From: Escherichia coli
GTDB lineage: Bacteria > Pseudomonadota > Gammaproteobacteria > Enterobacterales > Enterobacteriaceae
DNA: 64,000 nt
Reading direction: 5' to 3' (one strand)
Assembly (NCBI RefSeq): GCF_017348835.2
Contig: NZ_CP071375.1
This document shows, piece by piece, positions 9,001 through 12,000 of the stretch. Positions within the stretch are counted from its first letter, which is position 1. Each line of letters starts with the position of its first letter. The position numbers are program-made.

Positions 9001-12000
9001 GCCACACTTATTTTCCAGGCTCGCTTCGGCGGGCCTTTTTTGTATCTGCGCCACGCCCGGCGCATATCAACCACAGAGCCTTTCGGGGGTGAGCTTACGG
9101 AGTGGTCAGTGTGACTTTCTCTGTGGGCAGATCGCTCCCGGGCGTTGGCTCACCCACCCAAAGGAACGTCACGATGTTTGGAATCTTCAAAAAGAAAACC
9201 CGCAGAGCGGCAGCGGAAATTAAAAAGTTTGAGAAACGCGATCTGGCACAGGCGGTGATTAACGCTGCATACCTGGTGGCCTATGCAGATGGTGAATGCG
9301 AGGCATCCGAGAAAGCGAAGATCGAACAGGTCTTACGTAATCAGCCTGCGTTGTCTGCGTTTACCTCGGAAATTAATGCGATTAGCGCAACTATTATCGG
9401 TCAGCTGGATACCAATTTTAAAATTGGTCGTCGTGCCGCGTTACGCGAGAGTGAGGATGTGAAACACGATACGCGTGAAGCGGAAGATGTGCTGGATGTG
9501 GCGGTGGCCATTGCGGAGGCAGACGGCGAAATTGAGCCGGAAGAGCGCAAGGTGCTGGAAGAGATTGCCGGTGTTCTGGGTCTTCGTCTGGAGAATCACC
9601 TGTGACGGTAAAACTGCGCCTGGCTGTGGCTGCACTCCTGCTGTTTCTGGTGGTGATGGTGGATTTCACCAGCAGAATCATGTCGGTGCTGGCGGATGGG
9701 GTGCTGGTCTGCGGCATTGTGGTATTGCTGTGGCCGGTGATAAAAAGAAACAGCCTGCATAATGCTTGATTTTTTTGTTTGCTGTTTATTAAAAACACTT
9801 CTGCATGGTGAATCCCCCTGTGCGGAGGGGCGATCAGCAACCAGGTATATGGGATAATCGCGGATTCAGGTGCTGATACTGAATTCACCGGGAGGCACCC
9901 GGCACCATGCAAGAAAAAGAATGTGCATGCAAACATGCCCCTCTCCGGAGGGGCTTTTTTATGGGTAAAAAATGCCCGAATGGGTTCGGGCAATAGCATG
10001 AGATACTGATATTGTTGTGTTGTTATCGTGTGGATTTTAACCAGGGTTTATCAGGCTGCGCAACTGCGTGGCCTTTTTTCATTTCTTGGGCTGTAGTCCC
10101 CGTGTGTCATTCAGGCTTCCGGACTACAGCCCACTCCATATCTGATTTAATACACTATCCCGGCCGGGAGGAATAATGACATTTAAACATTATGATGTTG
10201 TCAGGGCGGCGTCGCCGTCAGACCTTGCGGAAAAGCTGACACACAAACTGAAAGAGGGCTGGCAGCCATATGGCGGACCGGTTGCCATTACGCCGTACAC
10301 ACTGATGCAGGCGGTGGCTATTGAAGGAGATCCACAGGTCGGCCCTTCATCTGAGCCGGACTGGTTCTACGTGGTTGTGCTTGCCGGACAGTCCAACGGC
10401 ATGGCCTACGGTGAAGGGCTTCCGTTACCGGATTCTTACGATGCTCCGGATCCGCGCATTAAACAGCTGGCGCGCCGCAGCACGGTAACTCCGGGTGGAG
10501 AGAGTTGTACGTATAACGACATCATCCCGGCTGACCACTGTCTGCATGATGTGCAGGATATGAGTACGCTGAATCATCCGAAGGCAGACCTGAGCAAAGG
10601 GCAGTACGGCTGTGTCGGCCAGGGCTTACATATTGCCAAAAAACTGCTTCCGTATATCCCGAATAACGCGGGGATCCTGCTGGTACCATGCTGTCGTGGT
10701 GGTTCGGCATTCACCCAGGGCGCGGAGGGGACATTCAGTGCGGACACGGGGGCCAGCCAGGATTCGGCACGCTGGGGTGTGGGTAAACCGTTATATCAGG
10801 ACCTGATTGCGCGCACTAAAGCTGCATTACAGAAGAACCCGAAAAATGTGTTGCTGGCGGTGTGCTGGATGCAGGGAGAGTTTGACATGAGCGCCGCCAC
10901 CCACGCACAGCAACCTGCGCTGTTTACAGCCATGCTGACACAGTTTCGTGCTGACCTCTCCGTGTTTAACGCGCAGTGCCATGGTGGCAGTGCTGCAGAT
11001 GTGCCGTGGATTTGTGGTGACACGACGTATTACTGGAAAAATACATACGCTACCCAGTACGACACCGTGTACGGCGGGTATAAAAACAGGGAGAGTGAGG
11101 GCGTTTATTTTGTGCCCTTCATGACAGACGGTAACGGTGTCAATACCGCCACTAACGCGCCGGCAGAAGATCCGGATATTCCGGCATCAGGATATTACGG
11201 TGCGGCATCGAGAACGAATGGAAACCAGGTATCATCAAACCGCCCGACACATTTCAGTTCATGGGCGCGCAGGAGCATTATTCCGGATCGTCTGGCAACC
11301 GCTATTCTGAACGCAGCCGGGCGCACCTCAGCCTTCATCAGTGGTAAGGCACCGGAAATCAAACCCTCGCCCGGCGGCAACACGCCATCGGGTCCGTCTG
11401 CAGATACGTCCGTTCGCACAATCTCCCTGCTGCCGGCAGACGGAGAGGCTGCTGCGCAGGGCTGGAGCATTAAGGATGGCGGAATTCAGTTGTCAGATGG
11501 TGTATTTAAGATCACCAAGCAGAGCAATAAAACCTGGTCCCTGACGCATCCGGTGGATGACGCAATTACCCTGCTGACACAGGGCGGCAGACTGACCTGT
11601 AAGTTCCGCCTGTCAGGCGCGCTGACCAACAATCAGTTCGGGCTGGGGATTTATCTGTATACGGATGCTCCCGTTCCTGATGGTGTGGCGATGACGGGTA
11701 CCGGTAATCCGTTCCTGATGTCGTACTTCACTCAGACCACTGACGGCAGAGTGAATCTGATGCATCACAGGAAAGCCGGAAACACGAAGCTGGGGGAGTT
11801 CGGCGATTACGGTAACGACTGGCAGACGCTGGAGCTGGTGTTCACCGCCGGCAGTGCCACGGTTACTCCGAAACTGAATGGAGTGGCTGGCCCGGCATTC
11901 CAGGTTATAAAAGACAGTCTGACACTGGGACTGAATGCGCTGACGCTGACGGATGTTACAAAAAATGCAGCGTATGGCGTTGAGATAGAAAGTCTGGTGC

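Follow-up and report, generated by a model that had tools for sequence, protein, structure and literature searches.

A convergent pair of small RNA genes, STnc100/EcOnc06 and AgvB, in front of nanS-p in an Escherichia coli prophage

What occupies the roughly 400 bp between the TerB/DUF3927 moron genes and nanS-p, the gene for a prophage sialate O-acetylesterase, in a lambdoid prophage of Escherichia coli? The question concerns positions 9780-10175 of a 64,000-nucleotide stretch of contig NZ_CP071375.1 (to be referred to as the window). An earlier note, made from the sequence alone, had described the region as a highly structured leader of nanS-p that could be a regulatory RNA, an attenuator or an antitermination-dependent leader, with a possible small Cys-rich open reading frame (ORF). 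With high confidence, the region is the published convergent pair of Hfq-binding small RNA (sRNA) genes, EcOnc06 of the STnc100 family and the GcvB sponge AgvB, together with the AgvB promoter. The gap is very probably an "sRNA dyad" of the kind typical of lambdoid prophage late regions, and not a leader. It contains two independent, trans-acting sRNA genes, STnc100/EcOnc06 on the plus strand and AgvB on the minus strand, which converge and have each its own promoter and terminator. The EcOnc06 (STnc100)/AgvB dyad is already known, and the copy in the window is real but ordinary.

The two genes are identified by their Rfam families. Rfam scans were run with permissive settings over 8400-10600, and were repeated over the whole window at the gathering threshold. 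The STnc100 model (RF02076) matches 9774-9966 on the plus strand over its entire length (model positions 1-206 of 206), with a score of 145.8 bits compared to a gathering threshold of 47 (E = 9e-34). The AgvB model (RF02702) matches the minus strand with 96.5 bits compared to a threshold of 56, and every position is identical to the consensus. The related family AsxR (RF02703) scores 43 bits at the AgvB site, under its gathering threshold of 63, and is not the member found here. Both RNAs have been published for the identical sequence, and the suggestion of a regulatory RNA is borne out. A second STnc100 match (20.1 bits, 8943-9047) was dismissed as a sub-threshold likeness to terminators or tRNAs.

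The published transcripts are those of prophage Sp10 of E. coli O157:H7 Sakai. Positions 9759-10190 of the window are 99% identical to Sp10, and both sRNAs are 100% identical. In Sakai, EcOnc06 is an RNA of ~177 nt with a peak in crosslinking and analysis of cDNA (CRAC) for Hfq, and its homologue is noted as "5' ECs1961" (Tree et al. 2014, PMC4104026). The northern probe for EcOnc06 is the exact reverse complement of positions 9846-9880 of the window.

The region is rich in hairpins. Eight terminator-like sites are found in 8400-10400, compared to 2.5 ± 1.6 in shuffled sequences, and the fold z-scores are -3.87 (9800-9962, plus strand), -3.75 (9967-10028, minus strand) and -2.91 (10029-10190, plus strand). 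By these values the serial structure exceeds chance. The inverted repeats listed in the earlier note are present, namely a hairpin at 9937-9954 followed by six T residues, gcccgaatgggttcgggc at 9974-9991, and a long repeat at 10087-10133 (given there as 10089-10134). The hairpin ccccctgtgcggagggg is also present, located at 9814-9830 and not at 9823-9839, 9 nt from where it had been placed. The gcccgaatgggttcgggc hairpin extends to 9973-9992; it is scored as a terminator of the minus strand, and the view that it is part of a plus-strand leader is not upheld. The strand of this hairpin had not been listed before, and neither had a plus-strand terminator-like hairpin at 10053-10074 and a long-range helix between 9803-9810 and 9903-9910.

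The last of these, helix P1, closes the first RNA, and three further helices and an intrinsic terminator make up the rest of its paired structure (Table 1). IMG/VR was scanned for exact matches to a pattern from the conserved core, which gave 120 loci, and 57 distinct STnc100 alleles were aligned. The helices of the Rfam and minimum-free-energy (MFE) structure are paired in 97.7% of 1673 cells, compared to 38-53% with slid partners. Compensatory changes are seen in nine pairs, most of them in P3 and the terminator; P1, P2 and P4 barely vary and are uninformative in this respect, and P4 is also fixed by the search pattern. The seven pairs of the terminator are themselves 97.7% paired across the alleles, three of them with compensatory changes. 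RNAalifold, applied to a MAFFT alignment of the alleles, paired the 3' arm of P2 with the terminator. This fold was set aside, and the Rfam/MFE structure was used and tested explicitly instead.

A predicted sigma-70 promoter precedes the first RNA, and its -35 element overlaps the stop codon of the DUF3927 ORF. The pattern TTGNYT, 17 bp, TTAAAA is located at a fixed distance from GCATGG in 54 alleles with otherwise different upstream sequence. STnc100 copies in Salmonella LT2 have RpoD-bound promoters, as observed by chromatin immunoprecipitation with exonuclease digestion (ChIP-exo). The promoter geometry suggests that transcription starts near 9800, which would give an RNA of ~160 nt. This promoter would drive an Hfq-binding sRNA of the STnc100 family, ~160-177 nt in length, with a four-helix scaffold, an A-rich hypervariable segment and the terminator.

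The hypervariable segment is single-stranded and separates P1 from the terminator. Among the 57 alleles, this slot (9911-9936) is filled by ten or more unrelated sequences between invariant flanks. In the window, the slot opens with four A-R-N triplets, AAGAAAAAGAAU (9911-9922). ARN motifs are sites for the distal face of Hfq, and the Hfq CRAC peaks of EcOnc27 and EcOnc06 cover a stretch of 63-80 nt (Tree et al. 2014, PMC4104026). The EcOnc27 peak comprises the 3'-terminal 80 nt and ends 4 nt before the AsxR peak (Tree et al. 2014, PMC4104026). The slot is most likely the seed that specifies the targets, and may also be the segment that contacts the distal face of Hfq. The cassette-like variability of this 3' segment is unpublished material. 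In some prophages (IMG/VR loci L005, L079, L086 and L037), two or three tandem STnc100 copies with differing variable segments are located in front of one anti-sRNA gene and nanS-p.

The terminator of AgvB, a minus-strand hairpin at 9992..9973 followed by U6, contains gcccgaatgggttcgggc and stands back to back with that of EcOnc06. It belongs to a conserved 3' portion of ~42 nt, with a Rho-independent terminator, that is common to AsxR and EcOnc03 in the allele alignment and in the published one. The 5' portion, CGAUAACAACACAACAAU, carries the GcvB-target motif CACAACA, and nucleotides 3-16 of AgvB pair with nucleotides 72-85 of GcvB, in the G/U-rich R1 region. The duplex was computed with the 24-nt 5' region of AgvB and a GcvB sequence that was checked to be 100% identical to E. 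coli genomes. Its energy is -19.9 kcal/mol, compared to -13.6 ± 2.7 kcal/mol for shuffled sequences, and 41 of 2000 shuffles were as good, which is modest statistical support. Full-length RNAduplex runs of AgvB or STnc100 against GcvB were rejected, as they contained very large interior loops and their energies were meaningless.

In Sp10, this RNA (AgvB1, identical to EcOnc01a) gives a 60-nt band in northern blots, is destabilized without Hfq and has a mapped primary 5' end (Tree et al. 2014, PMC4104026). It sponges GcvB and provides a fitness advantage for E. coli O157:H7 in bovine rectal mucus (Tree et al. 2014, PMC4104026). In the window, the -10 element of a candidate promoter is followed by 5 nt and then by the published +1 at 10028. 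Equal promoter geometry precedes the published starts of AgvB and of the AsxR-type allele, and TGCGCAA is invariant in 27 alleles. The position of these elements relative to the start mapped by RNA ligase-mediated rapid amplification of cDNA ends (RLM-RACE) points to their function as the AgvB promoter. The promoter (10063..10034) would drive the 62-nt AgvB. AgvB pairs with the R1 seed of the core sRNA GcvB and thereby frees amino-acid and peptide transporters, DppA among them, from repression by GcvB. A minus-strand RNA of ~271 nt has been detected across the equivalent region of the Sp4 allele (Tree et al. 2014, PMC4104026), and there is therefore antisense transcription over this stretch in some alleles.

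Table 1. Features of the nanS-p upstream region and of the adjoining late region (positions in the window)
Feature	Position	Strand	Basis
Antiterminator Q gene	7787-8608	+	PF03589, E = 4.7e-50
Candidate pR'-like promoter (TTGATT ... TGGTAAATT)	~8615-8650	+	Sequence reading, putative
Terminator-like hairpins, tR' candidates	8642-8658, 8689-8708	+	Terminator scan
Predicted sigma-70 promoter of STnc100: -35 TTGATT 9766-9771, 17-bp spacer, -10 TTAAAA 9789-9794	9766..9794	+	Allele geometry
STnc100-family sRNA gene, identical to Sakai EcOnc06	9774..9966 (RNA ~9800-9960)	+	Rfam RF02076
STnc100 helix P1, long-range, closing the first RNA	9803-9810/9903-9910	+	
STnc100 helix P2, hairpin ccccctgtgcggagggg (arms CCCC/GGGG)	9815-9819/9826-9830	+	
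STnc100 helix P3, central hairpin	9862-9869/9879-9886	+	
STnc100 helix P4 (CCGGG/CCCGG), GGGAGG within stem and loop	9888-9892/9898-9902	+	
29-codon ORF, MQEKECACKHAPLRRGFFMGKKCPNGFGQ	9907..9996	+	ORF listing; chance open frame
Hypervariable single-stranded segment between P1 and terminator	9911..9936	+	Allele alignment
STnc100 intrinsic terminator: hairpin 9937-9954 and T6 9955-9960	9937..9960	+	Terminator scan
AgvB, anti-GcvB sponge sRNA, 62 nt	10028..9967	-	Rfam RF02702
Putative AgvB promoter: -10 TAAAAT 10039..10034, 18-bp spacer, -35 TTGCGC 10063..10058	10034..10063	-	Allele geometry
term3: terminator-like hairpin, 9-bp stem 10053-10074 and T6, overlapping the AgvB -35	10053..10079	+	Terminator scan
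hp46: long hairpin in the nanS-p 5' untranslated region, 12-13 bp stem, 21-nt pyrimidine-rich loop	10088..10132	+	Allele conservation
Small hairpin UCCC-GGCC-GGGA (10158-10169), partly occluding the nanS-p Shine-Dalgarno sequence GGGAGGA (10166-10172)	10158..10172	+	Minimum-energy fold
nanS-p, prophage sialate O-acetylesterase, DUF1737 + SASA + DUF6645	10176..12026	+	Pfam; "SASA family carbohydrate esterase" in the identical genome (Prokaryotic Genome Annotation Pipeline, PGAP)

The setting of the pair is that of a lambdoid late region. E. coli strain 2014C-3011 contains the window at 100% identity, and its PGAP annotation gives the gene order RusA, Q, tRNA-Ile, tRNA-Arg, TerB, DUF3927, a 406-bp gap, SASA esterase (nanS-p), holin and lysozyme. 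No feature is annotated by PGAP inside the gap of this genome. Pfam matches are found for Q, TerB, DUF3927 and the esterase (DUF1737, SASA and DUF6645). The two sRNA genes thus converge between a moron coding sequence and a conserved phage ORF, downstream of Q/pR', in agreement with the published description of the position of such dyads (Tree et al. 2014, PMC4104026). Matches to the element were found in 2876 of 5426 complete E. coli genomes, at a median of two places per genome, and in 362 phage records, mostly of Shiga toxin (Stx) phages.

How nanS-p is expressed can be considered from this layout. The gene order is that of a Q-dependent lambdoid late operon, with Q, late promoter-like and terminator-like sites, and nanS-p on the same strand in front of the holin and lysozyme genes. 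Transcription toward nanS-p would pass, in order, the pR'-like promoter and its hairpins, two tRNAs and a terminator, the moron genes, the sRNA terminator and the plus-strand hairpin at 10053-10079 (to be referred to as term3). For nanS-p copies of Stx2a phages, published quantitative PCR gave an induction of 1-2.4 log by mitomycin C, in parallel with stx2a. By analogy, expression of nanS-p most likely depends on Q-antiterminated read-through from pR'. In the lysogen, plus-strand transcription would end at the sRNA terminator, with term3 as a backup, and nanS-p and the lysis genes would be silent. After induction, RNA polymerase modified by Q would read from pR' through all these terminators, and nanS-p would be expressed. 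The description of the region as antitermination-dependent is therefore retained in the ordinary lambdoid sense, with nanS-p in a Q/pR' late operon behind several plus-strand terminators, and is given up in the sense of a dedicated leader.

The pR'-like promoter and the two hairpins after Q (8609-8715) probably give a short pR'-tR' transcript, the counterpart in this prophage of the 6S/StxS RNA. A match of the same segment to the Trp_leader family (25.6 bits versus a threshold of 41) was dismissed as a sub-threshold likeness to terminators or tRNAs. Between Q and the moron, two tRNA genes of the phage are located at 8752-8827 and 8928-9004; ARAGORN reads them as tRNA-Met (CAT) and tRNA-Arg (TCT). 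PGAP names the first one tRNA-Ile, in agreement with the ileZ/argO pair typical of Stx-type phages. A Plastid-ycf2 match on a tRNA was dismissed as sub-threshold, and a terminator-like hairpin (9017-9036) follows the second tRNA.

Two hairpins are located between the AgvB gene and nanS-p (10029-10175), term3 and a long hairpin to be referred to as hp46. The inverted repeat of hp46 consists of 13-nt arms (10087-10099 and 10121-10133) that are 100% complementary. Among 27 distinct alleles, 91.3% of the hp46 cells and 83% of the term3 cells are paired, compared to 31-49% in the slid controls, and four pairs of hp46 show compensatory changes. The covariance check across homologous phages that had been proposed thus finds these hairpins conserved, like those of STnc100. 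G.U cells outnumber A.C cells by 38:2 for hp46 and by 40:5 for term3, and both are therefore kept as plus-strand RNA structures, and not as parts of a minus-strand RNA or as symmetric DNA. Their conservation in front of nanS-p is unpublished material. Neither one has an Rfam match at E<=1, apart from a sub-threshold match of term3 to OmrA-B (20.9 bits, 9996-10080), which was dismissed as a likeness to terminators or tRNAs. By scan and by inspection, no convincing plus-strand promoter was found between the two plus-strand terminators, where it would give a third sRNA ending at 10079.

A third, small hairpin lies at the ribosome-binding site (RBS) of nanS-p, whose ATG is at 10176. Its CCC/GGG arms are kept in 24-27 of the 27 alleles, in one of them with a different loop (GGAAA); there is no covariation, and the support is weak. 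The loop of hp46 (10106-10122) shows 71% complementarity over 17 nt with the Shine-Dalgarno (SD) and start region of nanS-p (10164-10180). An anti-RBS pairing was rejected, as the duplex energies are no better than those of shuffled loops (p 0.13-0.88 in 16 distinct alleles); the apparent complementarity arises simply because the loop is pyrimidine-rich.

The inheritance of this stretch was surveyed in 83 distinct IMG/VR segments that hold both STnc100 and the start of nanS-p. A module of 203-233 nt is located directly before the nanS-p ATG in 60 of them, nine of which have it behind a second, tandem STnc100. The module contains, in plus-strand order, a minus-strand short sRNA of varying type, its promoter, a hairpin with a T-run, a long hairpin, and a CCC-loop-GGG hairpin at a GGGAGGA RBS. 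The other 23 segments have an AT-rich replacement of ~620 nt between the STnc100 terminator and nanS-p (for example L120:10862 onward, L023 and L075). In these alleles the 5' end of nanS-p differs, the long hairpin is missing and the RBS is another one. The corresponding low-coverage matches in E. coli genomes hold the anti-adapter gene iraM at the position of the replacement.

These observations suggest possible roles for the hairpins. term3 may be a backup terminator or insulator that shields nanS-p and the lysis genes from read-through of the sRNA promoter, with its core doubling as the AgvB -35. hp46 may be a structural or stabilizing element in the 5' untranslated region (UTR) of the late mRNA. 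A tentative proposal goes further, that 10029-10175 controls nanS-p and the lysis genes in cis, as a module made up of term3 over the AgvB promoter, the 45-nt hairpin and the RBS hairpin, and inherited together with the anti-sRNA gene. We consider it possible, though distinctly on the unlikely side. In one version, the module may block read-through in the lysogen; the induced late transcript, which is fully complementary to AgvB, may be cleaved in the duplex, and hp46 may shield the new 5' end of the nanS-p/lysis mRNA. Such a module has no description in Rfam or in the literature consulted on this locus.

The reading of the whole region as a cis-acting leader or attenuator of nanS-p, with alternative terminator and antiterminator hairpins and possibly coupled to translation of the small ORF, fares much worse. 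Two plus-strand terminators (9937-9960 and 10053-10079) do lie directly before nanS-p, hp46 and the RBS hairpin are conserved as plus-strand RNA structures, and an ATG with an upstream GGGAGG exists. However, a separate sRNA, which has a conserved promoter and terminator of its own and has been detected as a distinct RNA bound to Hfq, takes up the first 190 nt, and the hairpin at 9974-9991 terminates a gene on the minus strand. The STnc100 scaffold recurs before the different 620-nt module that includes iraM, as well as in tandem copies, and no conserved mutually exclusive pairings were found. A leader-peptide attenuator of the Trp leader type is not seen here either, with an unconserved ORF, one hairpin on the other strand and a first terminator that ends an independent sRNA. 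At E<=1, 9780-10175 has no match to a cis-regulatory family of Rfam. In place of the single cis-acting leader of the earlier note, there are two convergent sRNA genes with their own promoters and terminators, and the leader explanation is improbable.

The hairpins at 10053-10132 could alternatively be features of the DNA, either a protein-binding palindrome that controls the AgvB promoter or recombination boundaries between lambdoid modules. hp46 is positioned at -60 to -104 from the AgvB start, the AgvB -35 forms the core of term3, and the T-run of term3 would be an A-tract upstream of the AgvB promoter. Moreover, the stretch from the minus-strand sRNA to the nanS-p RBS is inherited as a unit and exchanged against the iraM module. 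On the other hand, the excess of G.U over A.C cells is an asymmetry expected only for plus-strand RNA, and the compensatory changes keep the stem of the hairpin. This explanation is a shade less probable than the leader.

The 29-codon ORF is present in the sequence as described. The frame from the conserved ATG was followed in 52 distinct alleles. It is open for 2-76 codons, with a median of 33, compared to medians of 4 and 24 for the other two frames, and three alleles stop after 2, 4 or 8 codons. The peptides of different alleles show no relationship past residue two. Three frames are used through the conserved terminator, giving PLRRG, SPSPEG or PLSGGA, and the alleles that share the variable segment of the window have four different C-termini, arising from changes in the length of T and A runs. 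The ATG is located within the closing helix P1 and the GGG of the GGGAGG motif within helix P4, with a spacing of 11 nt from the SD-like motif to the ATG. Both GGGAGG and most of the AUG are kept in the Rfam STnc100 consensus, and both are fixed in the allele set by the search pattern. Pfam has no match for the ORF, and PGAP does not annotate it in the identical genome. In published ribosome profiling (RIBOseq) of the eleven EDL933 STnc100 copies, which cannot be assigned with certainty to the allele of the window, the coverage ranges from 0 to 3.2, with 0.04-3.2 at different copies and little or none at several. The ORF is not a conserved protein gene, and occasional loading of ribosomes is possible. 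That it encodes a functional Cys-rich micro-protein, or that STnc100 is a dual-function RNA translated from its SD-like GGGAGG and ATG, is highly improbable in the light of this evidence, and is the least likely of the explanations considered.

Several points weigh against the reading as an EcOnc06/AgvB dyad with the roles proposed above. The plus-strand start is placed by promoter geometry, and the evidence for the transcript is from another strain, Sakai, where the ~177 nt seen in northern blots is somewhat longer than the predicted length. The description of EcOnc06 as a base-pairing sRNA with a variable seed is drawn, by analogy, from Hfq binding and from the relatives PasD and EcOnc27. 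The proposed role of hp46 comes from its conservation and position. term3 is weak or degenerate in some alleles, and its core may be conserved only as the AgvB -35. In addition, some of the EDL933 STnc100 copies do carry ribosome footprints, up to the highest coverage given above.

Other features of the prophage were observed alongside these. A 193-codon ORF on the minus strand (9418-9999) is antisense to TerB, DUF3927 and STnc100, and is "hypothetical protein ECs_1960" in the Sakai record. This ORF has no PGAP annotation in the identical genome and no Pfam match, and is probably spurious. The gap from nanS-p to the holin gene (12027-12470) has four terminator-like hairpins, two per strand, compared to 0.3 expected, including a strong plus-strand one at 12391-12417 and a minus-strand one at 12050..12036; there is no Rfam match at E<=1. 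Its position agrees with the published place of PasA/PasC-type sRNAs, which lie beyond the sialic acid esterase gene and beside the holin operon. In the early region, a sok antitoxin RNA (RF01794, 5170-5344, plus strand, 113.5 bits) marks a hok/sok-type toxin-antitoxin locus.

The importance of the locus is in part established already. Published work shows that AgvB re-tunes the GcvB regulon of the host and helps E. coli O157:H7 to grow in bovine rectal mucus, and that over half of the complete E. coli genomes have STnc100-type RNAs next to stx and nanS-p. The present analysis resolves the anatomy of this copy by strand, gives a clearly negative answer on the small ORF, and adds the cassette-like hypervariable segment carried by the STnc100 scaffold and the conservation of two hairpins before nanS-p as plus-strand RNA. 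These hairpins provide a modest, testable lead on the insulation of late genes from sRNA promoters, and they bear on the question in the field of why such dyads exist.

Among known systems, the EcOnc06/AgvB1 dyad of Sakai Sp10 (Tree et al. 2014, PMC4104026) is effectively the same locus, in the same convergent arrangement and in another host strain than that of the window (2014C-3011). Its flanks match as well, with tRNA-Arg and a TerB-like gene, followed by the nanS-p homologue ECs_1961. There are only two differences in 9759-10190, both in hp46: Sakai has four extra nucleotides (CAGC) in the 3' arm (window 10121-10132; Sakai L122 1273-1290) and one single-nucleotide polymorphism in the loop of this hairpin.

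The EcOnc27 (sRNA103)/AsxR dyad, downstream of stx2B in the Stx2 phage Sp5/933W, has the same architecture and the same position upstream of nanS-p. An STnc100-family sRNA on the late strand converges with an anti-sRNA of 51-60 nt, and AsxR shares its 3' 42 nt with AgvB. In comparison, the moron in the window is TerB/DUF3927 and not stx2AB, the 5' seed of the anti-sRNA targets GcvB and not FnrS, and the variable segment of the plus-strand sRNA is unrelated.

PasD1 and PasD2 of enteropathogenic E. coli (EPEC) E2348/69 are reported to share the structure and ancestry of STnc100, and to be Hfq-dependent and located in lambdoid prophages, adjoining a sialic acid esterase gene (Pearl Mizrahi 2021; Zhu, Shabalina and Storz 2026 preprint). 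According to the preprint, PasD is too divergent for BLAST and has a different seed, and it is likened to STnc100 here by the published description only. Finally, the short pR'-tR' transcript of lambda-type phages (6S RNA, or StxS in Stx phages) shares the late logic, with a short terminated RNA in the lysogen and Q read-through after induction. The dyad differs from it in that tRNAs and moron genes come first, placing it 1.1 kb further downstream, and in that its RNAs come from their own promoters.

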